Below are positions 5,850-64,000 of a stretch of 64,000 nucleotides of DNA, piece by piece. Each line of letters starts with the position of its first letter. Position 1 is the stretch's first letter. The DNA lies in the NCBI GenBank assembly GCA_965248535.1, contig CBDFJR010000002.1, forward strand, positions 1,376,001 through 1,440,000, in the 5' to 3' direction. This DNA comes from Phormidesmis sp. GTDB taxonomy: Bacteria > Cyanobacteriota > Cyanobacteriia > Leptolyngbyales > Leptolyngbyaceae. The notes below the pieces were generated by a model. It was not told the origin of the DNA. It worked only from the letters and a program-made list of their open reading frames with translations, and did not search any database. Made by a program: the position numbers and the translations under genes.

Positions 5850-6034
5850 AACGCAAATCTCCAAAGATTATGAGAACGGAAGACAAACCATCAAACTTGC
5901 TACCAGCAATCGCTCCGATTGGAGTTGACTCGGCCGCCGGGCAAGCATGATTTACTTTTCTTCACTTATTCCATCGATTATAGAGGCATGTTCTTCAAAA
6001 ATTCCAGGTTTGCACCCGCAAATCTTAAAGCTTC

Positions 6035-6052
6035 TTTATATTTCTTAACACT
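6035..6052. promoter_or_regulatory. Possible HLR1 (RpaB) site upstream of psbD
   Basis: TTTATATT-TC-TTAACACT is an imperfect match to the (G/T)TTACA(T/A)(T/A)-N2 direct repeat. Confidence 0.35.
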
Positions 6053-6124
6053 TGAAGACAGAGCCAACCGCATCAGGCAGATATTTGCGATACTAGAGCT
6101 TGGTTATCCGTAAAGCACTCTCCT

Positions 6125-6391
6125 ATGTTCATTATCGAATTGACGTTAAAGACTACACCTGTTCCCCTCTCGGTGCAGCGCAAATCAGCAGAAGATGCAG
6201 AAAAGACTTACCAAGAGATCACGGCGGCAATGCGCGCTGGCAGTAGCCAGGTTTTAGAGCTAACCTGCGATCGTCAAACCGATAAGAAACTGGCGCTGCT
6301 CAGTGACGGTCTAGCTGCGGTGCAAATCTATGAAAAATCAAGTGCGTCTGCTTCTGGTAGAGCGCCCGGTTTCTTCGCGATGGCCGAGTAA
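6125..6391 (+). CDS. Conserved cyanobacterial hypothetical protein
   Basis: Well-formed 88-aa ORF ending GRAPGFFA, 6 nt upstream of the ABC ATPase. Confidence 0.8.
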   Translation: MFIIELTLKTTPVPLSVQRKSAEDAEKTYQEITAAMRAGSSQVLELTCDRQTDKKLALLSDGLAAVQIYEKSSASASGRAPGFFAMAE

Positions 6392-50891: not shown

Positions 50892-50961
50892 GTATTCTAG
50901 AAATCAACCTAGATTTCCAGACTGCATCTGTGGTAATCTAGGAGCTGCATTGAATAGGTTT

Positions 50962-51034
50962 GGCTCAGTAGCTCAGTGGTTAGAGCAGGGGACTCATAAG
51001 CCCAAGGTCGCAGGTTCAAATCCCGCTTGAGCCA
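50962..51034 (+). tRNA. trnM: tRNA-Met(CAT), elongator type (Ile2 not excluded); probable integration site
   Basis: GGCTCAG/TTGAGCC-A acceptor stem; CTCATAA anticodon loop; GGTTCAAATCC T-arm. Confidence 0.92.
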
Positions 51035-51103
51035 TTTTTTAGGATGGAATAAAATATCCCGTAGCCCCGTATTTCAAGGGGTTACGGGATTTTCGCGTTT
51101 GTG

Positions 51104-51168
51104 CAATACCCTCTAACACCCTTTAATACCCTCTAATACCTGCCTACTTTTTAGGCAAACTTTAGGCA
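51104..51168 (+). repeat. Short direct repeats; putative integrase/Xis arm sites
   Basis: AATACCCTCT-AACACCCTTT-AATACCCTCT-AATACC (10-nt period) and TTTAGGCA x2. Confidence 0.55.
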
Positions 51169-51169
51169 C

Positions 51170-52300
51170 ATGATTGAAGGCAGACTTGCACAGGCTAACG
51201 GACGATTGAAAGCTTCTAACGTGGGTGTGAGCATCGAGATAAAGGGCAATCGCCTTTATTTACGATCGACGTTCCCCCCTAAACCCGGTTCAGATAGAGA
51301 AAAGCCCTCTCAGCAACGTTTGACGCTTGGCTACCATTCAAACCCGGCTGGTCTGAAACTGGCAGAACAAGAAGCGAGAAAAGTCGGCGCGCTGCTCGAT
51401 TGTCGTGAGTTTTCTTGGCAACCGTATTTAACGGCATCTATCATCAAACCCCTGACGATCGCTGATTGGGTGCAGAGATATGAGATTGATTATTTCAATC
51501 GTCGTGAGCAGACCCCTGAGAGTGTAACGACTTGGAAAGGTGACTATCTACAGGCTTTTTCGTGTCTGCCTCCAGATGAACCGATCACTCTGCAACTGCT
51601 AACAAGCGCTATCACTGCTACTAAACCAGATTCTAGGAATCGAAAGCGGTTTGTCGATGTGTTAGGACGGCTCGCAGTGTTTGCGGGGCTAGAAGCCAAT
51701 TTTAAGCCACTGAAGGGGAATTACTCACCGAGCAAGGTAACGCCGCGTGATTTACCTCCAGATAGCACGATCGCGGCATGGAGGGAGAAAATCCCTAACC
51801 CTAAATGGCAGTATGCCTATGGTCTGATTGCCACTTATGGAATTAGACCCCATGAGGTATTCCGGTGCAACCTGGATAAATTCCCGGTGCTGCAAATTGA
51901 GGAAACGACTAAAACAGGGCAGAGACGGGTTTATCCGTTCTACCCTGAGTGGCTTGAGCAGTGGAATTTAAGGGAGGGCACCTTGCCACGGGTCACGGGT
52001 CAGAATAACTCTGATTTGGGTAATCGGGTGAGTCACCAGTTTAGGCGCTATGAGGTGCCCTTTCCTCCCTACAATTTGCGGCACGCTTGGGCCGTGAGGT
52101 CGATGGAGTTTGGGCTAGACATTAGCCTAGCGGCGCAACAGATGGGGCATAGCGTCAGAGTCCACAGCGAGATCTATCACGCTTGGATTAGTGAGGAGGT
52201 GCATCAGAGAGCGTATGAGGCTCTCATGATGAGGAGCGATCGCCCGTTGCCTCCTATCTCATCTCTGGGGGAATCTCTAACGCCTCCTCACAGCGTTTGA
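51170..52300 (+). CDS. Tyrosine integrase
   Basis: YGIRPHE (R); KTG (K); YNLRHAW; MGHS; IYH (Y); N-terminal arm-binding-like region. Confidence 0.93.
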   Translation: MIEGRLAQANGRLKASNVGVSIEIKGNRLYLRSTFPPKPGSDREKPSQQRLTLGYHSNPAGLKLAEQEARKVGALLDCREFSWQPYLTASIIKPLTIADWVQRYEIDYFNRREQTPESVTTWKGDYLQAFSCLPPDEPITLQLLTSAITATKPDSRNRKRFVDVLGRLAVFAGLEANFKPLKGNYSPSKVTPRDLPPDSTIAAWREKIPNPKWQYAYGLIATYGIRPHEVFRCNLDKFPVLQIEETTKTGQRRVYPFYPEWLEQWNLREGTLPRVTGQNNSDLGNRVSHQFRRYEVPFPPYNLRHAWAVRSMEFGLDISLAAQQMGHSVRVHSEIYHAWISEEVHQRAYEALMMRSDRPLPPISSLGESLTPPHSV

Positions 52301-52466
52301 GGTGCCATCGGTAGGTCGGTCTAGCAGCTTGCGGGCTGGCAATATTTCGCCAATGGATTTTCTCTTTTAGGAGTCCTTCACGCCGAAGTTTCCAGAGATG
52401 CTCGTCAGTGAAACCCAATTCATTACAAACCGTGCCTGTAGGCACCCAATCAGAGGTTCTGCTCAT
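52254..52466 (-). CDS. Excisionase-like winged-HTH protein
   Basis: 70 aa: WV.T...CNELG....L..LR..G..K...HWR...RPTYRWH; convergent on the integrase. Confidence 0.75.
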   Translation of the reverse strand: MSRTSDWVPTGTVCNELGFTDEHLWKLRREGLLKEKIHWRNIASPQAARPTYRWHLKRCEEALEIPPEMR

Positions 52467-52728
52467 CACACCCCCCAAATAAACTGGGCTGCACGTATTT
52501 TTTAACGTACACCTGTCTCTCAAGTTGCTGACATCGCTGGTTTAGGGCAGTGGTCAGGATGTCAAATTCTCTCGATAGCAGAGAGTAGTGGGATTTTTTC
52601 CACTTCTTGTAGAGCGGCATATCTTGCCAGTCGCCCTCTGGCTCCCAATCTGTCAGCACCCCGATGGCGATTTTGAGCTTAGAAATCCGATCGCTGTGAT
52701 CGATGATGTCGTCAATGAAGTTGCTCAT
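52450..52728 (-). CDS. Prophage hypothetical protein
   Basis: 92-aa ORF tightly coupled within the leftward operon. Confidence 0.65.
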   Translation of the reverse strand: MSNFIDDIIDHSDRISKLKIAIGVLTDWEPEGDWQDMPLYKKWKKSHYSLLSREFDILTTALNQRCQQLERQVYVKKYVQPSLFGGCDEQNL

Positions 52729-53666
52729 CTATCGTTCCTCCAAGATTTGGTTGCCGTCGATCAAGAAGCGCCACTGGTTATCGGTAATCAGATTCCTCAC
52801 TAAATCGGCCCAGCCGGCCGCGAGCAGCGCTTGCAGTCGCTCTAAAACAAAGGTGCGATCGCCGAACTCGATCGCTCTTTGGCAACTTTCGCGAATTTCA
52901 AATAAATCGGGTGCCGCCGCCGCCACCGGAACCTGACCCGTCTCAACCTGACGATTTTGGCTGATCAGAAAGTCTTGCTGATTGGCTTCTAACGGTGCCT
53001 GCTTTTTGACCCACTGCTCTAAGAAGGTGGGCCGGACTGGGAGCTGCTCAGATTTCCAGATCAACCAGTCTCGATAGGCGGGTTCGATCTCCTGTTTTGC
53101 GTCAGCATTTTTGTCTCTCTCTCGATCATCTCTGTAGAGAGAGAGAAAGATTGTAAAGACTGTAGAGATAGAGGCGATCCAGACCCGTTATGGGATGCGG
53201 GTTCTGGCGGTTTTTTGTCGCAAATTTGCGAATTTTTGTCGCATAAGTGCGAATCTGAGTCGCAAAACTGCGAATCTGAGTCGCAAATTTGCGAATTTTT
53301 GTCGCACTTATGCGAATCTGAGTCGCAAATTTGCGACAATTCCTCCAAAAAAACATATTCTGGAACTCCCTCTGAGTTTGACATAGGAACGTTTAGTTCC
53401 ATTTCGTCGGGGGCGCTAATTTCGAGGCGATGCTGCTCAGAAAGTTTTCCGATCGCTCGGTAATAACTGGCTTTGTTGATGCCCAGTTGATCGCAAACCC
53501 AACTGATGCTGAGGCGCACCACTTTGCCAAGTTTGCGGGCACTGGCTACCAGGTAGAAAATTGCGCCCCTGGTCGTGAGCAACCCGGCTTTATAGTCTCG
53601 AATGACATCTTTAACGGTCAGTCTATGGTGGGGTTGGGTTTTGGGTGTTTTTACGCTAGGATTCAT
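52729..53666 (-). CDS. Putative replication initiator (N-terminal HTH), split by a frameshift in CT/AG tracts near 53113-53148
   Basis: HTH segment ISWVCDQLGINKASYYRAIGKL; internal 21-nt repeats; the downstream frame stays open back through the tracts. Confidence 0.65.
53213..53337. repeat. Six 21-nt tandem units with palindromic core TCGCA-N4-TGCGA (iteron-like)
   Basis: GTCGCA starts at 53217, 53238, 53259, 53280, 53301 and 53322. Confidence 0.9.
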
Positions 53667-53759
53667 GGGGATGTCAAGGTTTTATGGACAAGAGAAAGAA
53701 AAGGCAACCTTTAGCCTTAAAAAGGGGCAGTCCGTAACTAGCGGTCTGCCCTTTGGCTT

Positions 53760-53972
53760 TTAAATGTGATTGACGATCGTTCTAATCAGGGCTTTCTTTT
53801 GCTCAGGTGACATGGTTGCGATCTGAGGTTCTAGCGGCGCTGGCAGATGATCGACGTGAAAGCCCAGGGGCTTGTGGGCAGAGGGATAGCTGATCTGCTC
53901 AGTCAGGGCGTGAATGAGTTGGACTTTTTGGTCTGAGGTGAGCAGCAGAAGTTGCGCCGTGAGTTGGGTCAT
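53760..53972 (-). CDS. Prophage hypothetical protein (internal helical duplication)
   Basis: LTSDQKVQLIHAL matches MSPEQKKALIRTI. Confidence 0.65.
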   Translation of the reverse strand: MTQLTAQLLLLTSDQKVQLIHALTEQISYPSAHKPLGFHVDHLPAPLEPQIATMSPEQKKALIRTIVNHI

Positions 53973-54015
53973 GGGTTAACCTTTGCTTAGATGAATTTGA
54001 TCAATGAACAGGCGA

Positions 54016-54049
54016 TCGCACTCCCCAGACGGCAGCGCGATCGCTTTTT
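54016..54049. repeat. 34-bp direct repeat, copy 1
   Basis: TCGCACTCCCCAGACGGCAGCGCGATCGCTTTTT. Confidence 0.9.
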
Positions 54050-54084
54050 GTTGGGATAATGGATTGAGTAAAAGAGGTTGAGTG

Positions 54085-54249
54085 ATGTTCAACATTGAGC
54101 TTGAGCAGGAAGATGACCAACGGTGGATCGGTGAGGTTACAGACTTACCGGGTGTGCTGGCTTATGGGCAGACGAAGGAAGAGGCGATCGCCAATGCAAA
54201 AGCGTTAGCGCTGCGGGTGCTGGCTGACCGCATTGAGCATGGTGAGTGA
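54085..54249 (+). CDS. hicB: Short HicB-family antitoxin (54 aa, not in the ORF track)
   Basis: MFNIELEQEDDQRWIGEVTDLPGVLAYGQTKEEAIANAKALALRVLADRIEHGE. Confidence 0.85.
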   Translation: MFNIELEQEDDQRWIGEVTDLPGVLAYGQTKEEAIANAKALALRVLADRIEHGE

Positions 54250-54251
54250 CG

Positions 54252-54485
54252 ATGCCTAAGAAGGTTAGGGAGTTGAAAAAACTCGTGAAGAAAGCGGGGT
54301 ATGTCTACCAGCCGGATCGAGGGAAGGGTAGTCATAGTTTTTGGAAACATCCCCTGTTGCCGGGTGAGGCGTTGTGTATCCCTGGTAAGGATGGAGATGA
54401 CGCACCGAGATATCTTGAGAAAGAGGTTGATCGGGTGCTGATGAAGCTGAAGGAGTTAGAGAGCCAACAGGAGGATGAGGTATGA
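54252..54485 (+). CDS. hicA: HicA-family toxin
   Basis: K.RELK....KAG....GKGSH..W.HP. Confidence 0.9.
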   Translation: MPKKVRELKKLVKKAGYVYQPDRGKGSHSFWKHPLLPGEALCIPGKDGDDAPRYLEKEVDRVLMKLKELESQQEDEV

Positions 54486-54712
54486 AATCGCGCTACAGCA
54501 TGGTCATCCAGTGGTCGGATGAGGATGATCTCTACCTGGTTCATTTGCCTGAGTTTCCGTGGCAGCAGTTTGTAACGCACGGTAAGACCTATGAAGAGGC
54601 GGCTAAAAACGGGCGTGAGGTGTTGGAAACGTTTATCGAGATGTTTCAGGAGGAAGGAAAGCCTCTGCCTGAGCCGATCGCTTACCCTGAAAAACCTCTG
54701 AAAGTTGCTTAG
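54482..54712 (+). CDS. hicB: HicB-family antitoxin
   Basis: YSMVIQWS.ED..Y.V.LPEF....THG.TYEEA; G.PLPEP. Confidence 0.92.
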   Translation: MKSRYSMVIQWSDEDDLYLVHLPEFPWQQFVTHGKTYEEAAKNGREVLETFIEMFQEEGKPLPEPIAYPEKPLKVA

Positions 54713-54783
54713 TGGCATAGAAATCTCCGATCGGTAAAAAACAAAAGTCATTTCGGCGCACACGTCCCGTGCAGCGAGGCTGT

Positions 54784-54817
54784 TCGCACTCCCCAGACGG
54801 CAGCGCGATCGCTTTTT
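54784..54817. repeat. 34-bp direct repeat, copy 2
   Basis: Identical to 54016-54049. Confidence 0.9.
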
Positions 54818-54821
54818 TGTG

Positions 54822-55007
54822 TCAGTAGGGCATTTGGTCTTCTTCTTCTGACTCTTCAACGCAGAGGTCAAAGATTTGCTGTAGCTCGTCTAGCAGGGCT
54901 TCTTGTCGATCGGGCGGGAGTTGCTCAAAGAGAGTGACGATTCTGTCTTTGAGTTCGTCGTGGTCTTGATGGTCTGCTTCTAAAACGGTCATTTCGTCTT
55001 GGGTCAT
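54822..55007 (-). CDS. Small acidic prophage protein
   Basis: 61 aa; GGAGG RBS. Confidence 0.7.
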   Translation of the reverse strand: MTQDEMTVLEADHQDHDELKDRIVTLFEQLPPDRQEALLDELQQIFDLCVEESEEEDQMPY

Positions 55008-55151
55008 CGATAAGCCTCCGGGTGGGAGAGGGAATCACGGTAAGGGGTCTGAGGGGTTGGGTTCCTCAGATGGGTGATTCCGGTGGATCATTGGTTTTAG
55101 CCACACGGGGAGGACGGCAAATCTGCCCCGTGTGGATGTTCAGTACAGAAC

Positions 55152-55190
55152 AGGCGATTCATCTAGGTGAATCATCTAGACGAATCGCCT
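55152..55190. promoter_or_regulatory. Palindromic operator candidate between divergent operons
   Basis: AGGCGATTCATCTAG-N9-CTAGACGAATCGCCT (14 of 15 positions complementary). Confidence 0.7.
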
Positions 55191-55203
55191 ATTTCAAGAT
55201 ACT

Positions 55204-55473
55204 ATGGATTCAGAAAAAAACAACCCGTGGGAGGAAGGCGTGTCCCCTTTAAAAACAATCCGCCAGTTGCTCAAACTGACTCAAAGGCAGTTTGCAGAAA
55301 GGATTGGCTCAGACCAAAACGTTGTGAGCCGATGGGAAAGGGGTGTCTATGAGGCGACTTTTACCATCGCGCAAGTCAAGGCTATGGATGAGTTGCTAAA
55401 AGAGGCATCCCTTACCTGGCAAGACATTCCTAACAGTCTTGCTCCCTACTCAAACGAAAGCGCTGAGGCGTGA
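55204..55473 (+). CDS. XRE-family HTH regulator (repressor/Cro-like)
   Basis: LK.IR..L.LTQ.QFA..IG.....VSRWERG. Confidence 0.92.
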   Translation: MDSEKNNPWEEGVSPLKTIRQLLKLTQRQFAERIGSDQNVVSRWERGVYEATFTIAQVKAMDELLKEASLTWQDIPNSLAPYSNESAEA

Positions 55474-55602
55474 CCACAATCACACTTCAGCGCTCACTTA
55501 AGAAAGGAGGTCATTAACCCCACACTATTTAGATCAAATTCTTAGCCGGGGCACAGCTTCCAACTTCACCCCGGCTCTACCCCAAACAGAGGCACTTACA
55601 TT

Positions 55603-56016
55603 ATGAATCTTTCATCACACAGACGATCGCTCGGTGCGATCGTCGCTGCAACGATCACGATTGCGGCACCCGCAGCGATCGCCATGACCTACGACGATTT
55701 CGGAGACCTTTTCAAGAATGCCGTCAACGGGTTAGCGGGCGATCGACCGCCTGAGACTCGGTACCCAGATGTCCCCAACAACGCTCCCCTGACTCACGGC
55801 GCTAAACCCTACAGCAGTTTTGGCTCACTCACCGCCGGGCAAGTCGATGCGCTGCATAACCTAGCCTGGCCACAATCCACTAAAGCGATGCGTTCCCGGT
55901 TCGGCGCTCCCTCCTATATCAGTGCCGACCTGGATTGGTTTGAGCAACCCGACGGGGAGTTTATCGCTGTCCGTTACCAGGGTGCTCAAGCTGTCGGTGT
56001 GGAGGCGGGAAAGTAG
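55603..56016 (+). CDS. Prophage exported hypothetical protein
   Basis: Signal-peptide-like N-terminus; RFGAP motif. Confidence 0.75.
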   Translation: MNLSSHRRSLGAIVAATITIAAPAAIAMTYDDFGDLFKNAVNGLAGDRPPETRYPDVPNNAPLTHGAKPYSSFGSLTAGQVDALHNLAWPQSTKAMRSRFGAPSYISADLDWFEQPDGEFIAVRYQGAQAVGVEAGK

Positions 56017-56018
56017 TC

Positions 56019-56276
56019 ATGCCTAGAGAAACATGGATTATGGAATCTGATGACAAAGACGGAGACTTTAGCGACACTGCATCTCACCACACTTACCAGG
56101 TGGGCAACATCACAGATGCGGTTGAAGCTGAATCACGGGCGCTTGAAACAGGTGGTGATCCGGTTTGGATGGATGCCAAGATCGATGGCTCTGAGTATGA
56201 AATCGAGCAGAATCAGAAATTCACGATCGCTGAGTTTGAGCTTGATTCTCAAGGTGTTCAGTATCAACAGAAGTGA
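56019..56276 (+). CDS. Acidic prophage hypothetical protein
   Basis: Starts 2 nt after the upstream stop. Confidence 0.7.
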   Translation: MPRETWIMESDDKDGDFSDTASHHTYQVGNITDAVEAESRALETGGDPVWMDAKIDGSEYEIEQNQKFTIAEFELDSQGVQYQQK

Positions 56277-56285
56277 GGTTAAACA

Positions 56286-56588
56286 ATGCCAGGTTTTTTT
56301 GAGCGAGTATTTTTTGGCAATCAAGCCGATGATGATGAAAGCTTTACTGACACCAATTCAGGGATTCAGTACACGAATCACAGCAAGCAGGAAACGCTTG
56401 ATCATGCGGCGCGATTTGATGAGTACGAGGCCGGCTCTGATGTCCGGTCTAACGATGGAAGGCAGGCTTCAGAGGTGCGTGATTCGACAAGGTTTAACAC
56501 TGCTATCTTTGAAGTGGATGACCAGAAGTTTTACTTCCCAACTGAACTCGATCCAGGCAACCCTAGAAATCCAGCAAACAAGCCATGA
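56286..56588 (+). CDS. Acidic prophage hypothetical protein
   Basis: GAGG RBS; 100 aa. Confidence 0.7.
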   Translation: MPGFFERVFFGNQADDDESFTDTNSGIQYTNHSKQETLDHAARFDEYEAGSDVRSNDGRQASEVRDSTRFNTAIFEVDDQKFYFPTELDPGNPRNPANKP

Positions 56589-56737
56589 ACAGCCTAACCC
56601 GACTAACAGAAGTCATGCAGACTGAGACGACCCTTACCGCGATCGCAAAGAAAGCAAGGGTTCCGGTTTCGATGGTGCAGTTTCATCTCAAAAAGACGCT
56701 CCCATCTGGTAAGCGACTGATTGTAGTGAACGAATAG
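56585..56737 (+). CDS. Small HTH-like protein (50 aa, not in the ORF track)
   Basis: ATGA overlap with the upstream gene; MNSLTRLTEVMQTETTLTAIAKKARVPVSMVQFHLKKTLPSGKRLIVVNE. Confidence 0.55.
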   Translation: MNSLTRLTEVMQTETTLTAIAKKARVPVSMVQFHLKKTLPSGKRLIVVNE

Positions 56738-56841
56738 ACAGCGATTGTCCTTTTCTCACAACTTGGGAACGCACAAAAAGCCCCTCTTAGACCGATCTGA
56801 GAGGGGCTTATGATTAAAAATATCGCTGTTTCTAGACCATT

Positions 56842-57261
56842 ATGACCGACACACCCGATCAACCGACTAACTTGAGCGATCGTATTGAATCCTTATTAGG
56901 TCAATCGCAAGAGTCATTCAACGCACGAATGGATCGAATTGCCGAAAACCTTGAAACAAGTTTTGAGATACAGCAACGTCAGCACGAAAACACCCTATCA
57001 GAACTGCGAGAACTCAAATCAGTTGCTCAAGAGCAATCTCGCACCGCACATCAGCAACAAGAAACCGTCCGTCAATTTGTGGGCATCGTCGGTGAACTGA
57101 CCCGCACCATTGCAGAAATGTCACGCACCGTTAGCGACTCAGTAGAGTCATCCAGGAACGCCGCACAAGCAGCAGAAACCGCCTCTGTTTTAGCTCAAAC
57201 CAATCAGAACGCCATCAGAGACTTAATTGAAGAGATGCGAGAACGGAGAAATGGAGGGTAG
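56842..57261 (+). CDS. Coiled-coil hypothetical protein
   Basis: 139 aa, Q/E/A-rich heptads. Confidence 0.75.
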   Translation: MTDTPDQPTNLSDRIESLLGQSQESFNARMDRIAENLETSFEIQQRQHENTLSELRELKSVAQEQSRTAHQQQETVRQFVGIVGELTRTIAEMSRTVSDSVESSRNAAQAAETASVLAQTNQNAIRDLIEEMRERRNGG

Positions 57262-57349
57262 ATCGTCCTTTCTTCACAACTTGGGAACCTTAAAAAAGCC
57301 CCTATCAGATCTTTCTGGTAGGGGCTTTAACACGCTTAAGGAGACAATC

Positions 57350-57562
57350 ATGATCGACGAAATCAAAATTGATAACTCAGTCATCCCTTTCATGCCTGCT
57401 AAATATCACTTGGGGCAGAAAGTCACGGTTGATCGCACCGTTGGCTACATCATCGGCATCCAGCGCGAAAAGTATTCATGGAGCTACCTGGTAGTCGAGG
57501 GTGAACCACCTACCAGCGATAGTGATGAAAACTGGCAATCAGAAAGCGAACTTGCAGCGTAG
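57350..57562 (+). CDS. Small SH3-like beta-barrel protein (DUF1392-like, tentative)
   Basis: AAGGAG RBS; KYHLGQKV..GYIIGI..WSYLV..W..ESEL. Confidence 0.65.
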   Translation: MIDEIKIDNSVIPFMPAKYHLGQKVTVDRTVGYIIGIQREKYSWSYLVVEGEPPTSDSDENWQSESELAA

Positions 57563-57697
57563 ATCGCTTCATTCTCACAAAAGCCCCTCTTAGATCGGTC
57601 TAAGAGGGGCTTTTGTCTGGCAAGTTATCGCCATTAACCCGGTATAAACCGTTACTAGTGGGAATGTTTAGAGATGAACAGTCAGCCCTGAATCACT

Positions 57698-57994
57698 ATG
57701 TCAGCTTTACCCACTAGACCCAGCGCGATCGCCACCACCGAACAGGAAATCATGCGCCTGATGATGTATTACCGCGATGTCAACCCGCGCACGACTTGGC
57801 TAGAAGAATCTAACTTCACCATGCCCGTGGCCTCATGGGATTGGAAACCCAACCCAGAAGGACGGATTCTCTTTGTGGCCCGCGCCATTATCGAAGTCGA
57901 TTCAGCCCTTCTCAGCAGTGGGGTCAAACCGTGGATGAGTGCTAAAGAGGTTCCCGGCTCCGCTACGTTGACGGGCAACGCCTACACCACCTGA
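57698..57994 (+). CDS. Prophage hypothetical protein, putative structural
   Basis: 98 aa; first gene of the tightly packed rightward module. Confidence 0.7.
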   Translation: MSALPTRPSAIATTEQEIMRLMMYYRDVNPRTTWLEESNFTMPVASWDWKPNPEGRILFVARAIIEVDSALLSSGVKPWMSAKEVPGSATLTGNAYTT

Positions 57995-57998
57995 TGCA

Positions 57999-58697
57999 AT
58001 GAACTGGACACAGTTAGGCAAAAGCATCACGATCGCCTCACAGCGCAAGTGGACTGATACGACGGCTAAGACTTGGTTTAAGTTTGATTTCAACCCGGCA
58101 ACCGAGGGATTTTTAGAAGTCACTCAAGGGGATGGAAATCTGACGATCGGGGAACCGATCAACATTTCAACGGATAGAAGCCCGGTGATTTTATCCCTAC
58201 CAGTGCCGCTATTAGTCAGTCCACAAAGCAGAAAACTCGCGCTTAAATCGCTCCAAAAACTCAAGATTAGCATCTCTACTTTAGATGTTGAACCTATCAC
58301 AATCAACCCAGATTTAAGCGCAGTTGTTCAGGCAATTCAAACTCAACAATCGCAGATCGACCTCATCTCAAACCAACTCACAACCTTACTCACCATGCCA
58401 TTATTTCAATCCAATCCCACCGTTCAGCCGCCCAAGAATTCCGTCTCTGCAACGATCGCTAGCTCAACCACAAGCGTATCGCTGTTAGCAGCAAACGATA
58501 ATCGCAAAGGTGCCACTATCTATAATCGCAGCACTGCCACACTGTTTATCGACTTTGACAGCGCTGCAACAATTCTAGATTGTGCTGTGGCTATTCCTCC
58601 AATGGGTTACTACGAAGTGCCGTTTGGAATGCTCACCGCAATCTCAGGTATCTGGGATGCAGTCAACGGTAGCGCATATGTTAGAGAGCTAACCTAA
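57999..58697 (+). CDS. Two-beta-domain protein with coiled-coil linker, putative spike/vertex protein
   Basis: C-terminal domain (TTSV.L..R.G.TI.NRST..I.GIWD..EL) is paralogous to that of 63025-63705. Confidence 0.65.
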   Translation: MNWTQLGKSITIASQRKWTDTTAKTWFKFDFNPATEGFLEVTQGDGNLTIGEPINISTDRSPVILSLPVPLLVSPQSRKLALKSLQKLKISISTLDVEPITINPDLSAVVQAIQTQQSQIDLISNQLTTLLTMPLFQSNPTVQPPKNSVSATIASSTTSVSLLAANDNRKGATIYNRSTATLFIDFDSAATILDCAVAIPPMGYYEVPFGMLTAISGIWDAVNGSAYVRELT

Positions 58698-59308
58698 TGC
58701 CGTTGTATGCCTACGATAAACATGACACTTACACTCAGGCTATCAACTGGGAGACACCCGGTGAGATAGGAAAAACAACACCTAACACGGGAAAGTTTAC
58801 ACGGGTTAGTGTTGCCAATACTAACAATGAGATTAGTAGATTTAGTTCGTCTGCTCAATACTATGCACGGCTAGCAGTTGAACACTCTGGGAGTCCGGGT
58901 ATAGCGCTCTATCATGATTCAACTTGGGCATGGTCTATCTTCTCAGATAGCGTCCTATTGAGCAATGGACAGACTAATGGATATAGCTACGCCATTGTTA
59001 ACGAGCGAACCTCTAAAATGGTGTTTGCTATTGATGGCAATGTGCAAAAGGTCAATGTGTTTGGAGGGCTGAGAGTTAGCAAGGAAACACCTAACCTCAC
59101 CTTCACTTCACCCCCCTCACCCGGCGAAGGCAACCTAGCCGTCGAGGGGTTTGTTCAGTTGGGCAGGTTCACCCTCTCTACTCTGCCTAATCCCGCTAGC
59201 TGTGAGGGTGCGATCGTCTATCTCTCTAACGAGTCTGGAGGCAAGACGATCGCCTTCTCTGATGGTGCGAACTGGAGACGAGTTAGAGACAACGTTGTTG
59301 TTACTTAA
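58697..59308 (+). CDS. Fibre / receptor-binding-like protein
   Basis: IG.TTPNTG.FT segment; C-terminal TLP.P...GAIVY.S.E.GG...AFSDG.NWRRV.D, a motif I recognise from phage fibre proteins. Confidence 0.65.
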   Translation: MPLYAYDKHDTYTQAINWETPGEIGKTTPNTGKFTRVSVANTNNEISRFSSSAQYYARLAVEHSGSPGIALYHDSTWAWSIFSDSVLLSNGQTNGYSYAIVNERTSKMVFAIDGNVQKVNVFGGLRVSKETPNLTFTSPPSPGEGNLAVEGFVQLGRFTLSTLPNPASCEGAIVYLSNESGGKTIAFSDGANWRRVRDNVVVT

Positions 59309-59329
59309 ACGATAAGGGAATCGCTACAG

Positions 59330-61825
59330 ATGGCTAATTATCGCTTTGGTGACGGATTTCATTACGAAAAACCCGCCTACGAACCTACACCCTCGCAAAT
59401 TAATGCAGCACAGGAAAGTGCTAGACGAAGCGCTGAAGCAAGAGCACGAGTTCAAGCAGCACAAGAACAGACTGCACGAGCAAGAGCGAAAGCTCTATCA
59501 GATCAAATAGAAGCCGAGCGACCGCAGAGAGAAGCACAGCAGAGACGGAATGCTGAACTTCGGCAACAAGCACAACAACGGTCTGATGAGTATCGAGCGG
59601 GATTAGAAAGTATCAAACAACGGCATAGAGAACAAGATGCTAAGTCAAAAGAAGTTTATGATGCCCTGAGAAAATACCAACGAGAAGAGTACGTTAATCG
59701 AACCGCTCCTAAACTCGATATTGCCCCTGGTAGACCACCCGGCGAAAATGATTTTGATAGCTCCGCAAAATTAAGAAATAGTACGCTACCAGCGCCCGCA
59801 CCACTTCCCATCAATCCCACAAAAAATGGGGAAATGGTACACGTTCCTAACGCTTCAAAATCACCATTAGCAAGAACTCAAGGCCCGATCGGGCCTCAAC
59901 TCCCAAAAGCATCATTACCCAGCGCAACTAAAAGCGGATTTAAATTTAGCGGTGTTGGCATGAGCGGCGGCGGCTTAGGTTTTGATATATCGGAAGCAGC
60001 GGCAACGTCCATCGCCCTCGATTTTCTGAATTCAAACGGTAGACCTAACTTTCCTGGTTACAATCCAGGCAATTCTGACATTGAAAGGTTAGGCAGAGGT
60101 ATCAGTGACGCTCTGAGGAATTTAGGCAACTCTCTAAGTCACCCTAGCGATAGATTATCTGACCTTCTAAACTTATTCCCCAACCCCTATAGAAAGCACC
60201 CTAGAACCGACCCCCAAAATGAGGACGGTAGACCTAAACCTGTTCGCTATGTCTCTGAGTGGAGAGGGTTAAAGTTCTACTCACCCAACAACAAGCGAGT
60301 AGTGCAGATCGCCGCACCCCACGGCGAATATTCGCTAGGGGAGATCAAGCAAGATAACCCCGGCGGGAACTACGTTTTCTCCAGTCCTGAAAAAAACACC
60401 TATGCCATCATCTACTGGGATAACCTGCAAGGGAATAACACCGATGGTTATCAGGTCATCAGGGGTAGCAGCACTTGCGAGCCTGACACCATCCAACGCG
60501 ATCCGACATATTCTCCTCCCTCCTACGACTTGCCCGCGCTGCTACCACCCGGCACCACCCCTGACCCCGGCTACCCTCCCATCTTCACAGACGAAGACTT
60601 CAAGCCCCAACGGGATTTGAATAACGATCGGGCCCGGCAAGACGAGCAAGACAGACAAGACGCACCCGATCCAGAACAAGAGCGGCAAGACGCACGCAGC
60701 CCACAGCCCGCCCCCGACCCGTGGGAAAATCCATTTCCAGCCCCAGACGGAACGCCGCAGCCACAGCCTTACCCCTTCCCGCTCGATCCACCCTCCCCAG
60801 ACCCCACTAACCCGACCGACCCCTACCCCGACACAACCCTAGGCGATCGCCTGAGAGAGAAAGTAGATCGCATCAAAGAAAAGCTCAACGAGAGATTCCC
60901 GGCTCCGACCGATGGGCCGCAGGTCACAATCAACGGTGATCCGGTGCCCAGTCCCACTTCTCCCGCTCCGCTACCAGACACCTCACTGTCTCCGTTGCCA
61001 GACACCCGCACTAAATCGCCTCCATCGCCTACAACGACCAAACCGCCCACAGAGACTCGGCTAGACACAGAGACCGGGCTGACTCCCACAAAAGACCCTG
61101 ACCCAAAACCCGACACCCCGACACCCGAAAAGTGTAAAGACCCCTGTATGCAAGGCTTGCACGATAAAACGGATGCTAACTCTAAGCAGACTGAAATTAA
61201 GGTCAAGGTGTTTAAATCGTGCTCTAAAGCGGGTGCTGACGGCACGACAAAAAATGAGATTGACTTTGAAGAGAAGCTGGTGAAGGTGCTAGCGAGTGAA
61301 GCGGATGCCTATAGGTTGCTCTACAGTCGGATTTTTGCCCTAGAGTCTGAGCAGTGTGGCGATGTGAAAGCGATCGCCTCCGTCCCTGAGTGGTGGCAAG
61401 CTCGGCGCGGGGCAGACATCCCTCAGCTTGTGATTATTTTTGCCGAGCAGTTTTCATCAGGCAAGCTAGGCGGCTCGCGATGGAATCTATCCATCCCTCA
61501 TTACAACAAGGGCAAGGGGTCTAGACCCGCGATTCCCTCTTATAACAAGGGCAACTGGTTCGGCACCCTACGGCTAACGGATGGGTCAAAGCTTGGGGTC
61601 AATGCCGCCACATCAACCGAATGTAAACGCATCTTAAATCGGTTGAAAATTCACATTCCGGTCGAGTTCCGCACCAAAAAAGGCAAGGCGATTAAACCGC
61701 GCATTGTGGAAGACCCCACGGCTGATCTCAAAGAATGCAAAGTGACACCCGTTAGAGCCGATTACTACTCTAAGGGTCAAGCCAACATGAGGCCTGACTG
61801 GTCAATTAATCTCCGCAGCAAATAG
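59330..61825 (+). CDS. Large prophage protein: helical N-terminus, Pro-rich linker, basic globular C-terminus
   Basis: 831-aa uninterrupted ORF; function not recognisable. Confidence 0.8.
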   Translation: MANYRFGDGFHYEKPAYEPTPSQINAAQESARRSAEARARVQAAQEQTARARAKALSDQIEAERPQREAQQRRNAELRQQAQQRSDEYRAGLESIKQRHREQDAKSKEVYDALRKYQREEYVNRTAPKLDIAPGRPPGENDFDSSAKLRNSTLPAPAPLPINPTKNGEMVHVPNASKSPLARTQGPIGPQLPKASLPSATKSGFKFSGVGMSGGGLGFDISEAAATSIALDFLNSNGRPNFPGYNPGNSDIERLGRGISDALRNLGNSLSHPSDRLSDLLNLFPNPYRKHPRTDPQNEDGRPKPVRYVSEWRGLKFYSPNNKRVVQIAAPHGEYSLGEIKQDNPGGNYVFSSPEKNTYAIIYWDNLQGNNTDGYQVIRGSSTCEPDTIQRDPTYSPPSYDLPALLPPGTTPDPGYPPIFTDEDFKPQRDLNNDRARQDEQDRQDAPDPEQERQDARSPQPAPDPWENPFPAPDGTPQPQPYPFPLDPPSPDPTNPTDPYPDTTLGDRLREKVDRIKEKLNERFPAPTDGPQVTINGDPVPSPTSPAPLPDTSLSPLPDTRTKSPPSPTTTKPPTETRLDTETGLTPTKDPDPKPDTPTPEKCKDPCMQGLHDKTDANSKQTEIKVKVFKSCSKAGADGTTKNEIDFEEKLVKVLASEADAYRLLYSRIFALESEQCGDVKAIASVPEWWQARRGADIPQLVIIFAEQFSSGKLGGSRWNLSIPHYNKGKGSRPAIPSYNKGNWFGTLRLTDGSKLGVNAATSTECKRILNRLKIHIPVEFRTKKGKAIKPRIVEDPTADLKECKVTPVRADYYSKGQANMRPDWSINLRSK

Positions 61826-61998
61826 TCAGTAATTTTAATGAAGCCCACGATCGGATCAATTTGCCTCAGCAACACAGGAAACCTCCGTAATTATGTCTTC
61901 GCTCTTAGAGCGAAGAAAATAAACCGGGGTTACCCTTGGCACTTCTGAGTATCGGTTGCGTAGGGTTGTGAGTAGCAAAAACTACCTCTCATTCACCT

Positions 61999-62503
61999 AT
62001 GTCTGCAATCAGCGTCACTGGCTCTAGCCTCAAATCAACCACCCTCCCAGGTGCCCTTCTCGAAGCCTGCTCTATTTCTCGATTCTGCTGAGAAAGCTCG
62101 GAACGGCGCAAACCCCGGAATCACTCCTAAAAACAACGTCAGCATCACATTTTCGAGTGACGACGGCACCGCTAACATCGCGGCTACCTTACCCGTTGAT
62201 GTTTCACAGCTATCTGATGGTGGCGTGAAATATCTGCCTAAAGACTATCTGGGTGGCACCTATGCGGCCTTTACTGCTGGTGGCGATGTCACGGCTACTT
62301 CTCGCATGGCGGCGGTTGCTCAAATTGCTCAGATTTTGAGTGCGGCTGAGAAAGCGATTCAACCCTTAGAAGATCAGCCTAATTTCATCCAGGTTGAATC
62401 CTCTAGCGAAAATGGCACCATCACCGTGACGGCTGCTCTTCCGATCGTGCAAACCATCAGTTCTAGCGGACTGGTGACGATCGCCGCGCTCGACTACCTC
62501 TAA
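61999..62503 (+). CDS. Tandem-duplicated alpha/beta protein, candidate major structural protein; one extra nucleotide near 62068
   Basis: ATG at 61999 gives MSAISVTGSSLKSTTLPGALLEA, which joins ALFLDSAEKA; the two halves of the repaired protein align. Confidence 0.65.
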
Positions 62504-62534
62504 ATCAGGAAGAAACCTATAGGAGGTATAAATC

Positions 62535-62999
62535 ATGGCTGAAACAGCAGCAGCAAAGAAGCATAGAGCTAGAGGTCCGAGACAGCTTTTTGGATGGGGA
62601 ACGATCACGGTGACTCGTGAGAAGAAGAAGGTTAAGCACAACCCCTTTTCAACGATTCCTAAAAGCACGATGGATGCCTGCGGCTTGAAGATTGCCAAAG
62701 CCCCTGCGAGTGCAGGAGTGAAAACCAAGAAAGACAAAAAGGGGCGCTTGAGACTGGTTAACAGCCAAAATCTGACCAACGTCTCCTCTCGCTACATCAT
62801 GGTTTATGCAGGTGAAACCGACAACAAACAAGGGGAAGTCTGGCATCGGATCACCCTACCAACCGGGATTTCACTCGCTAGAGGAGCGTCTATTCTCACG
62901 GGTGGAGGCTCTAAAATCCAAAAGGTGAAATTCCCGAACGGTAAAGCCGTCCAGATTGGCAAGAAAATCACCCCGAAAGCGGCTCCTAAGAAGAAGTAA
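62535..62999 (+). CDS. Highly basic Lys-rich protein, putative nucleic-acid-binding core protein
   Basis: AGGAGG RBS; K/R-rich; ends KKITPKAAPKKK. Confidence 0.75.
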   Translation: MAETAAAKKHRARGPRQLFGWGTITVTREKKKVKHNPFSTIPKSTMDACGLKIAKAPASAGVKTKKDKKGRLRLVNSQNLTNVSSRYIMVYAGETDNKQGEVWHRITLPTGISLARGASILTGGGSKIQKVKFPNGKAVQIGKKITPKAAPKKK

Positions 63000-63024
63000 C
63001 GATCATCGCTGAGTAGCCCAATCA

Positions 63025-63705
63025 ATGCTTGACCCAACTGAATGGCGGCTACGCGGCACCCGGCTCTATGGGATTAGGGGCGATCGGTCTCCCCTAATCC
63101 TCTGCCGTGACCTCACTTCTCAACTCGTGCGGGTTGATGTAGTTTTCAAAAATCTCAAATCGACTTGGTATAAGGCGGGAACGATTCAGCAGGTGTCGGA
63201 TGGGATTAGAGCGGCTGAGAAGACCGTGCCGTTTGAGTCTCGCTACTATTTGTTTCCAACGGATTTAGCACCCACCTATTCGCTTTATTGGCAGCCCGTG
63301 CCATGGCTACCAGTGGGGCGCTTACAGGTGTGGGAGTATATCGGATTGATTCCTGATGCACTCCTTCATCAACTCGCTAACTTCTCTGGAGAGTCTCAAA
63401 TGCCTGTCATTACAAATCCCGTCGCTCGTGCAGCCACGTCACGAGACACTGACAAAGGGGTCAGCACTACGTCTGTTGTGTTGATGCCTGCTGAGTTACG
63501 CCGCGTGGGGGGCACGATCATCAATCGATCTACCATTGCCTCGCTGTCGATCAATTTCGGTGAAACAGCAACGTCTGCTGACTATCACCGCCTCACCCCT
63601 GGCGGCTCGATCGATATTCCTATCTCTTGGGTGGGAGCGATCGCCGGAATCTGGGATAAAGCAGATCCCCTCGGTAAAGCCGTCATGACCGAGCTACTGG
63701 GCTGA
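63025..63705 (+). CDS. Two-beta-domain protein, putative structural
   Basis: N-terminal domain with TWYKAG and PVPWLP..LQVWEY; C-terminal domain paralogous to that of 57999-58697. Confidence 0.7.
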   Translation: MLDPTEWRLRGTRLYGIRGDRSPLILCRDLTSQLVRVDVVFKNLKSTWYKAGTIQQVSDGIRAAEKTVPFESRYYLFPTDLAPTYSLYWQPVPWLPVGRLQVWEYIGLIPDALLHQLANFSGESQMPVITNPVARAATSRDTDKGVSTTSVVLMPAELRRVGGTIINRSTIASLSINFGETATSADYHRLTPGGSIDIPISWVGAIAGIWDKADPLGKAVMTELLG

Positions 63706-63742
63706 AAGCCCTTGAGTTAAATCAGTTCTCCTGAAGCACCAG

Positions 63743-63768
63743 GCGCGGGGTCAGTCCCGCGCTTTTTT
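63743..63768 (+). terminator. Intrinsic terminator
   Basis: GCGCGGG-gtcagt-CCCGCGC-TTTTTT. Confidence 0.7.
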
Positions 63769-63786
63769 GAATCATCTAAGGTCACC

Positions 63787-64000
63787 GTGAATAAAAATGA
63801 GTCGATTCTGTTTACGATCACCGTGCTCTCTTTTGGGGCTGGTCTGTTGCATCGTGTCTGGCTGATGTCCATGGCGGTTTCAGGAATGCGCCATAATCTG
63901 GAAAAACAAGACATCCGGTTGGAAAATCTCAACGATCTACATGAGGCCGGGTTTAATGGGTTTAAAGAAAGGATCGAACACTTCACTAACCGGACTCGCG
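63787..64000 (+). CDS. TM plus coiled-coil protein (3' truncated by window edge)
   Basis: GTG start; MNKNESILFTITVLSFGAGLLHRVWLMS..; open to the window end. Confidence 0.55.
   Translation, partial: MNKNESILFTITVLSFGAGLLHRVWLMSMAVSGMRHNLEKQDIRLENLNDLHEAGFNGFKERIEHFTNRTR

Follow-up and report, generated by a model that had tools for sequence, protein, structure and literature searches.

What does an integrated element pass on when no terminase, portal, capsid, relaxase or Zot gene can be recognised in it? This question is posed by the right end of a 64,000-nt stretch of the cyanobacterium Phormidesmis sp. (contig CBDFJR010000002.1; hereafter "the window", with positions counted from its first letter). 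The original prediction, made from the letters alone, had read this end as a compact prophage at a tRNA-Met gene, whose rightward late genes would encode an unusual, probably non-tailed particle. Our analysis revealed one complete integrative element, inserted site-specifically by a tyrosine recombinase and equipped with a conserved, co-oriented module of orphan genes. This module travels with interchangeable replication and integration backbones and also occurs on integrase-less circular or tandem units of 7.2 and 10.1 kb. Gene content and synteny place the element in an unnamed family of small (7–14 kb) mobile elements, mostly of filamentous cyanobacteria. A discrete tRNA-Met-integrated element devoid of tailed-phage, conjugation and inovirus hallmarks thus stands as predicted, whereas the particle role of its late genes is circumstantial; that they form the morphogenesis and adsorption module of a non-tailed virus-like particle, representing a new virus family, is our leading reading and is put forward tentatively.

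The limits of the element are set by the tRNA gene and the attachment (att) sites:

50961–51035, + strand: tRNA-Met (anticodon CAT), the integration target (ARAGORN; Rfam tRNA, 60.8 bits)
50990–51041, no strand: attL, 52-bp core, with a perfect copy (attR) at 64373–64424 (exact-repeat search of the whole contig)

The tRNA start had previously been given as 50962. Together, attL and attR duplicate 52 bp of the tRNA-Met 3′ end perfectly and in direct orientation, and delimit an element of 13,383 bp; a whole-genome search found the core at these two sites only. The second att site, which the original prediction had expected outside the window, lies 373–424 nt beyond its end and is followed by host genes for TPR, DnaJ-like, GrpE and DnaK proteins, so terminase, portal or capsid genes cannot hide beyond position 64000. 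With the element ending 424 nt past the window, neither terminase, portal or HK97 capsid genes nor conjugation genes, any of which had been named as fatal to the prediction, were encountered there. The upstream host neighbour is an M23/LysM peptidase gene. In composition the element is host-like, as judged from its GC content (49.9% vs. 50.4%) and from HIP1 sites, which occur throughout it, as noted originally (12 sites; 0.89 per kb vs. 1.02 per kb genome-wide).

Directly past attR, positions 64426–64527 contain 59 nt resembling the left end of the element (88%) and 43 nt resembling the 5′ end of hicB (88%). These ~100 nt are the scar of an older related element that sat in tandem at the same tRNA-Met site. 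Logan contigs from three runs, aligned to the element, yielded no clean attP or empty-attB joint. One low-depth contig (depth 2) links the attR end to the nucleotide that directly follows the integrase stop codon, a backward jump of 12121 (14423 to 2303 in the coordinates of locus L002). An attP junction would look different; the contig might represent an integrase-less variant of the element or have arisen in assembly.

Within these boundaries, searches of 28 open reading frames (ORFs) against Pfam, PHROGs and NCBIfam returned no terminase, portal, capsid, tape measure, relaxase or Zot match, and the ORFs from 57698 to 64083 matched no family in these collections at all. No real ORF of the element contains a Walker A motif: a six-frame scan located the pattern at two places only, within open frames of no more than 23 and 15 codons, and it is likewise absent from the modules of the relatives scanned (a second element of the same genome and the loci L009 and L016; the prefix L denotes related loci). 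The family searches and the Walker A scan thereby corroborate the absence of terminase, portal, HK97 capsid, tape measure, relaxase and Zot proposed at the outset. Known classes can be compared on this basis. For Caudoviricetes, sequence-level tests of the fully delimited element detected no large terminase, no portal or HK97 capsid family was matched, and neither of the two module proteins folded is HK97-like. For Corticoviridae and the PRD1-PM2 lineage, a candidate jelly-roll protein of the vertex spike/penton kind is present; sequence searches recognised no major capsid protein of the double jelly-roll type, the match of the 232-aa protein being to spike P1 and not to the capsid protein, and no FtsK/HerA-type packaging ATPase was found in the element or the scanned modules of relatives. 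For Inoviridae, there was no Walker A motif, no Zot or Rep family and no small transmembrane (TM) coat-like ORF among those scanned. For conjugative or mobilisable elements, no relaxase, coupling protein or type IV secretion family was detected in any ORF, nor any ATPase motif. Judged by the defining genes examined, membership in Caudoviricetes, Corticoviridae, Inoviridae and integrative and conjugative elements fails at the sequence level. Terminase_6N, TerL_ATPase and Phage_capsid moreover had no match anywhere in the genome, which is 99.76% complete.

The co-oriented rightward module, which proved to be real, comprises the following features, several with counterparts in the second element:

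57698–57994, + strand: core gene 1, of a ~100-aa family preceding the large protein in all relatives (homologues 38–46% identical in L046 and L047)
57999–58697, + strand: 232-aa protein with predicted beta-sandwich domains at residues 1–85 and 145–232, candidate vertex/spike protein
58697–59308, + strand: 203-aa fibre-like protein (59% identical copy in the second element)
59330–61825, + strand: core gene 2, 831-aa large protein, homologous to an 867-aa protein of the second element (1.6e-17)
61999–62503, + strand: core gene 3, a frameshifted copy of the 167-aa family (longest intact frame 62051–62503)
62535–62999, + strand: core gene 4, very basic 154-aa protein (34 K+R, 7 D+E), by composition a candidate DNA-binding protein
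63025–63705, + strand: 226-aa protein with the same C-terminal jelly-roll domain as the product of 57999–58697 (blastp 5e-11; profile E 8e-37)
63741–63764, + strand: terminator-like hairpin after the 226-aa gene (10 pairs, 7 GC, T-run)
63787–64000, + strand: core gene 5, 98 aa, running on to 64083; N-terminal hydrophobic helix (by eye) and coiled coil, homologues in relatives

Core gene 1 shows weak similarity to a 101-aa family represented in the second element, for which 30 homologues (53–98% identical) were collected, 27 of them exactly 101 aa long; the source name "glucose-6-phosphate dehydrogenase" on two of these homologues, from Phormidesmis priestleyi ULC007, is almost certainly a misannotation. 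The 203-aa fibre-like protein has only four close homologues in 5.8 billion proteins and shares a C-terminal motif with a DUF2793 protein. The 831-aa protein starts with a coiled coil, followed by a conserved domain of small size in the middle, a Pro-rich stalk and a conserved C-terminal domain (residues 602–831), which recurs in 24 ORFs of the loci fetched (see below). Homologues of core gene 4 occupy the same position in L049–L051 (81–84% identical) and L047 (36%), and those of the 226-aa protein are found in L048–L051. In L050, the corresponding position is occupied by a 65% identical homologue of core gene 5, and further homologues are found in L046, L064 and L016; the second-element equivalent weakly matches the holin phrog_1296, making core gene 5 a candidate for a holin-like or assembly role. 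An antisense ORF at 63717–64022 was taken as spurious, the true last gene being 63787–64083 on the + strand.

The frameshift in core gene 3, the best-conserved late gene, had escaped the original prediction. Translation would start at ATG 61999, one extra base lies near 62066–62068, and the N-terminal 24 residues are in the other frame; accordingly, the family profile splits on this copy into residues 1–26 and 20–167. All 91 homologues of the 167-aa family (45–95% identical) are unbroken, nearly all of them 166–169 aa long. The extra base may reflect either a true mutation or an assembly error. The family alignment shows the 167-aa proteins to be an internal tandem duplication of a unit of ~80 aa. 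Half-size homologues (76–116 aa) that match one half only exist in other cyanobacteria, and some relatives carry an N-terminal extension of 170–210 aa (339–378-aa forms); L040, L044, L045 and L066 are the loci behind these observations.

Two copies of the module, and only two, are present in this genome. The second belongs to an element of 14,066 bp (contig C2, 1014264–1028353) flanked by 24-bp direct repeats beside tRNA-Glu(TTC). Its backbone has a 42% identical integrase, an XRE gene and an AAA_25 replication protein in place of iterons, and its module, which is of the sister subtype (101 aa, 867 aa, 269 aa etc.), includes homologues of the large, the jelly-roll (two small genes) and the fibre-like (59%) proteins and ends in a TM/coiled-coil gene. 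Two further loci lack the late module: a backbone remnant (C2, 2357427–2358680) with the rep N-terminus (77%), the 70-aa ORF (97%), hicA and hicB, and a region (C5, 1032684–1049402) with a 41% identical integrase and hicAB ~15 kb away.

Syntenic elements in other cyanobacteria, whose search the original prediction had recommended, were indeed found. Scanning 185,579 species genomes with a profile of the jelly-roll protein led to 26 fetched loci, from Nostoc (23), Tolypothrix (1), Myxacorys (1) and Plectonema (1), i.e. named hosts are nearly all filamentous genera, and culture strains such as Nostoc linckia NIES-25 and Nostoc punctiforme NIES-2108 are among them. The core recurs in 19 of the 26, seven being too short for synteny to be judged, and metagenome contigs add to these. 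Sixteen loci share the order 101, ~900, ~270, ~160 and ~105 aa; three are of the window subtype, with the large-protein C-domain and, in two of the three, the 167-aa gene. The family core can therefore be described as ~100-aa, 650–970-aa fibre-like, 167-aa or 269-aa, basic and TM/coiled-coil proteins. The 167-aa and 269-aa families are mutually exclusive and fill the same slot after the large protein; a 167-aa profile was positive in 16 of 401 sampled cyanobacterial genomes, the window genome included. Replication genes vary across loci (DUF3854+D5_N+DUF5906, DnaB+AAA_25, Prim-Pol, or iterons), giving at least four backbones, and in the fetched loci a small tyrosine recombinase is encoded immediately upstream of the 101-aa gene.

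A metagenome scan (21 loci) uncovered circular and tandem forms. The 7,298-nt contig L064 has a 127-nt terminal overlap and hence corresponds to a 7,171-bp circle; it encodes a 470-aa Rep-like ORF (no credible match in the PDB), small regulators and the core (100, 657, 170, 137 [basic], 121, 58 and 101 [TM/coiled coil] aa), and lacks both an integrase and jelly-roll genes. L065, from another sample, is 99.99% identical to it and extends 1,031 nt into a second unit (87% identical). In L046, a 10,084-bp unit is repeated in tandem 1.8 times at 99.7% identity; it encodes a Prim-Pol-type protein, and an integrase ORF was not recognised. Both ends of L059 (13,471 nt) are the same 46 nt of a tRNA 3′ half; this contig encodes a 44% identical integrase and a large protein with collagen repeats in place of the stalk (Pfam 1e-49). 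A 326-aa protein of a relative weakly matches a discoidin domain. Moving intact between backbones and occurring on small circles, the module behaves as expected of self-transmission; conjugation genes are absent.

The folding and Foldseek comparison proposed in the original prediction was run on two of about ten module proteins, namely the 232-aa protein and an intact 167-aa homologue; the former matched XepA and the PM2 spike P1, the latter nothing. The 232-aa model (53-sequence alignment; pLDDT 80.7, pTM 0.47) consists of two beta-sandwiches joined by a floppy, disordered 50-residue linker, with XepA of PBSX as the top-ranked PDB match (3.8e-4) and 110 BFVD matches at E≤0.001, mostly uncharacterised Caudovirales proteins of ~90–100 aa. 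On the strength of the model, this protein is a PM2-spike-like candidate for a vertex or spike. A profile of its jelly-roll C-domain retrieved 8854 representative proteins; among 150 matches listed, the domain is mostly C-terminal in chains of 102–1155 aa, and in long chains fibre-like repeats precede it (16 sequences read). Of 20 of these 150 that were scanned, one matched a PHROG "virion structural protein" through its N-terminal part, and another matched a Pfam coiled-coil family below threshold. In INPHARED the 232-aa protein matched one uncultured podovirus only (three records; 28% of the query). In this podovirus (L035; MW202524.1), the one INPHARED phage with the jelly-roll C-domain, the domain lies at 6001–6201 in an unannotated stretch downstream of the major capsid and glycosyltransferase genes. 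The 167-aa homologue was modelled by AF2 with a pLDDT of 92.1 and had no PDB match.

Other searches added little. ESM Atlas gave no usable match for the 150-aa and 831-aa proteins (scores at most 0.88, low recognition), and PDB sequence and profile searches gave nothing credible for the fibre-like, 269-aa and 167-aa proteins and the large C-domain. A tandem cyanovirin-N match in the PDB (E 5e-4, no significant stretches) was dismissed as a repeat/composition artefact; phospholipase A2 rows stem from a Cys-rich stretch encoded by the iterons. At E≤1, no PHROG family appeared in more than one of 17 members of the 269-aa family, and Pfam yielded nothing consistent for 17 large-protein C-domains; no member of the fibre-like family surfaced in the genome or metagenome scans. 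A limited search of the open-access full-text literature, which is no proof of absence from print, did not find a description of the module. A "prophage" of Nostoc punctiforme has been described as a larger phage-like cluster, Npun_F1091–F1118, with five putative tail fibre genes (PMC12691664).

How might such a module work? In the particle reading, the main structural proteins would be the ~100-aa protein together with the 167-aa protein or, in the other subtype, its 269-aa counterpart. The basic protein would condense double-stranded DNA (dsDNA), host recognition would fall to fibres or spikes formed by the jelly-roll proteins and by the large protein with its Pro-rich or collagen stalk, and the last TM/coiled-coil protein would act in release or assembly. 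As a packaging ATPase is lacking, the DNA would become enclosed while the particle co-assembles around it and would not be pumped in. We rank a non-tailed, ATPase-less particle first because of the spike- and fibre-like proteins, the collagen or proline stalk, the weak discoidin match, the very basic protein and the terminal holin-like gene; the conserved synteny and the 7–10-kb circles speak for it as well. A more far-reaching version appears possible but doubtful: the 7–14-kb elements would then be the genomes and proviruses of a new non-tailed dsDNA virus family of filamentous cyanobacteria with a virion of folds new to solved viruses (the internally duplicated 167-aa protein being an example), no packaging ATPase, collagen- or proline-stalked fibres and PM2-like jelly-roll spikes. 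Such a bacterial virus lineage would belong to neither the HK97 nor the double jelly-roll realm.

Several observations weigh against a particle. Among the module proteins, about ten in number and two of them folded, none was recognised as having a capsid fold, be it HK97 or a single or double jelly-roll major capsid protein, which could indicate either a new fold or no capsid at all; as the 167-aa model matches nothing, calling this protein a capsid protein is a guess. The lack of a packaging ATPase and the presence of one membrane protein only are unlike the PM2- and PRD1-type viruses indicated by the spike match. IMG/VR contained no relative of the 232-aa, fibre-like or 167-aa queries, and the 167-aa protein was without a match in INPHARED or PLSDB. 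With its most conserved late gene (167-aa) frameshifted, the window copy may be defective. Finally, the case, built from gene content and comparison, is circumstantial.

The best-surviving alternative, which we regard as rather unlikely, is a phage satellite analogous to the tycheposons that resemble phage-inducible chromosomal islands (PICIs). Such an element would replicate after infection by a helper cyanophage and be packaged in helper capsids, its module supplying hijacking, adaptor and retargeting proteins. The general plan fits: an integrase, a regulator and an own replication gene reside on a tRNA-integrated unit within the 7–20 kb of satellites, and the size of 7–14 kb, the tRNA-targeting tyrosine integrase, the XRE switch and the primase/helicase-type replication genes agree with what the tycheposon preprint reports for tycheposons and PICIs (bioRxiv 10.1101/2020.12.28.424599). 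Satellites would also explain the lack of a capsid fold and packaging ATPase, the jelly-roll C-domain is common to many tailed-phage proteins, and the tandem copies and same-att remnant resemble the tandem junctions described there (bioRxiv 10.1101/2020.12.28.424599). However, searches against Pfam, PHROGs and NCBIfam revealed no known hijacking gene, whether terS, capsid, Sid/Cpm-like or other, although the orphan genes could conceal such functions, and the conserved module takes up about half of each element (6–7 kb, ~10 genes), far above the hijacking share of known satellites. No resident helper is visible either, given the genome-wide absence of the two terminase families and Phage_capsid, although a lytic helper is possible, and the 7.17-kb circular relative retains the module without an integrase.

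Still less probable, in our view, is an integrative or plasmid-like element whose module makes no virion, acting as a surface fibre or adhesin, as a device for intercellular DNA transfer or as cargo maintained by HicAB. All module proteins being orphans, the named hosts being nearly all filamentous and the circular 7–10-kb relatives being plasmid-like with Prim-Pol-type Rep genes are in keeping with this view. It is at odds with the large, 167-aa, 101-aa and jelly-roll proteins, which have no secretion signal or membrane anchor, with the lack of any relaxase, coupling ATPase or pilus gene in the searches, with the 167-aa protein being unmatched among 72,556 PLSDB plasmids, and with the constancy of the module across exchanges of the replication and integration genes, as is typical of self-transmission. 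A decayed tailed prophage that has lost its head and packaging genes is close to refuted: the frameshifted late gene, the ~100-nt older remnant right after attR and the occurrence of jelly-roll and fibre-like domains in tailed phages would suit it, but the att repeats are perfect over 52 bp, many genomes, as well as the circular or tandem forms, share the size of the unit and the order of its genes, and neither a terminase, portal or HK97 fragment in the element nor any of the three terminase and capsid Pfam families in the genome was detected.

The left half of the element is a self-contained backbone with iterons and an HTH (helix-turn-helix) initiator-like gene, an XRE switch and a HicAB addiction cassette:

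51170–52300, + strand: tyrosine integrase, 376 aa (phrog_1 integrase, E 1.3e-10; R..HxxR..Y-type C-terminus in the translation)
52254–52523, − strand: small ORF with an HTH-like stretch (by eye only), possible excisionase
52450–53064, − strand: two orphan ORFs of 92 and 111 aa (ORF list; no Pfam, PHROG or NCBIfam match)
53061–53666, − strand: putative replication initiator with an N-terminal HTH-like part (ORF; iterons inside the 3′ half)
53196–53357, no strand: 21-bp iterons (GTCGCAnnnnTGCGAATyTnn), ~7 units with palindromic cores (repeat search and sequence)
53760–53972, − strand: 70-aa backbone-conserved ORF (two further copies elsewhere in the genome, 97% and 40% identical)
54016–54817 including repeats, + strand: cassette of HicB-like (54082–54249), HicA (54246–54485) and HicB (54482–54712) genes (Pfam, PHROG)
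54822–55007, − strand: 61-aa acidic ORF, divergent from the XRE gene (ORF list; no family match)
55204–55473, + strand: XRE-family HTH regulator (Pfam HTH_3, 7e-11; 18 PHROG regulator families)
55603–57616 including hairpins, + strand: five small orphan ORFs (55603–56016, 56019–56276, 56286–56588, 56842–57261 and 57227–57562)

Of the control genes named in the original prediction, the tyrosine integrase, the iteron-bearing HTH gene and the XRE regulator are borne out by these matches and repeats. The integrase has no Pfam match at E≤0.01, a weak match to a XerC-like PDB chain (E 0.009) and paralogues of about 41–42% identity at two other loci of the genome. For the proposed excisionase (52254–52523), the HTH-like stretch is visible by eye, yet Pfam, PHROG and NCBIfam gave no support and no homologue was found in the fetched loci. 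The ORF 53061–53666 likewise matched no Pfam, PHROG or NCBIfam family and nothing credible in the PDB; its N-terminal fragment is 77% identical at a third locus of the genome, and its putative role as replication initiator and origin derives from the iterons, no family backing it. The array at 53196–53357 comprises six overlapping copies of a 57-nt family. Similarly, the proposed operator can be seen as two ATTCATCTAG-like direct repeats immediately 5′ of the XRE start, but family searches did not confirm it.

The Hic cassette had not been noticed before. HicA matches Pfam HicA_toxin (PF07927; E 2.1e-10, 41 bits at a cut-off of 27), HicB matches HicB_lk_antitox (E 7.2e-6; 26.6 and 22.9 bits, just below the cut-off of 27), and phrog_353 and phrog_497 match the cassette too; a HicA toxin thus lies beside a HicB antitoxin, as in HicAB toxin-antitoxin systems. 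A perfect 34-bp direct repeat with a HIP1 site (54016–54049 and 54784–54817) brackets the cassette, which for this reason resembles a moron inserted as a unit.

Among the five small rightward orphans, ORF 55603–56016 has a signal-peptide-like N-terminus, the sole hydrophobic segment scored among the element proteins. Three of the five are terminated by strong terminator-like hairpins, at 56776–56812 (z −5.1), 57294–57330 (z −4.4) and 57577–57616 (z −8.6). A 67-nt repeat (79% identical; 56743–56809 and 57261–57327) combines a conserved leader (…TCACAACTTGGGAAC…) with a terminator-like hairpin. These repeats, which matched no Rfam family, and the third hairpin at 57577–57616 may be regulatory RNAs or antitermination targets ahead of the late module.

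The cyanophages known from culture are nearly all tailed. As virus-detection pipelines key on known hallmark genes, elements of the present kind would be invisible to them, and IMG/VR indeed had no relative for the three queries. If particles are made, they would constitute a new virus group for an ecologically important phylum as well as new structural folds; if the element is a satellite or a transfer device, it would still represent a new route, open to testing, by which genes flow among Nostoc-type cyanobacteria. The question lends itself to direct experiments, since named culture strains contain intact relatives.

How does the element compare with known systems? Corticoviruses have small dsDNA genomes, integrated or circular, in which an integrase is combined with variable replication genes. 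PM2-like corticoviral prophages and the PRD1-PM2 lineage are similar to the element in just these respects, but a double jelly-roll capsid protein and an FtsK/HerA-type ATPase are not recognised in it, its module has one membrane protein in place of a set of small ones, and the replication genes of its family are of iteron, primase or helicase types, unlike rolling-circle Rep. Plasmaviridae (Acholeplasma phage L2) and pleolipoviruses have dsDNA genomes of 7–16 kb, are temperate or plasmid-like, require no packaging ATPase and exchange replication modules around a small conserved structural block. Their virions are membrane vesicles, made chiefly of membrane proteins or of spikes that have signal peptides and anchors. 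In contrast, the core proteins of the element are soluble, and the likeness comes with no sequence or fold link.

The control region recalls lambdoid phages, with the integrase beside att, a small HTH ORF downstream, and a small ORF and the XRE regulator diverging with repeats between them. The lambdoid-like layout of the original prediction is nevertheless a loose label, because the leftward arm contains the replication gene and its iterons, the switch region includes a HicBAB cassette, no CI, Cro, Q or antiterminator family was identified in the element, and the same backbone would suit satellites or integrative plasmids. XepA/YomS of Bacillus PBSX and SPbeta (PDB 6i56, 6i5o) share ~9% identity with the 232-aa protein at a whole-chain root-mean-square deviation above 15 Å, the domain orientation being different. 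With satellites, namely PICIs, P4-like elements and the PICI-like tycheposons of Prochlorococcus, the element shares tRNA integration by a tyrosine recombinase, an own replication module, a size of 10–20 kb and tandem att arrangements. A terS or major capsid protein gene is the mark of PICI-like tycheposons in the preprint (bioRxiv 10.1101/2020.12.28.424599); the element lacks either, has a conserved 6–7-kb orphan module instead and has integrase-less circular relatives. The backbone resembles tycheposons, PICIs and the switches of temperate phages, and one protein the PM2 spike and XepA.

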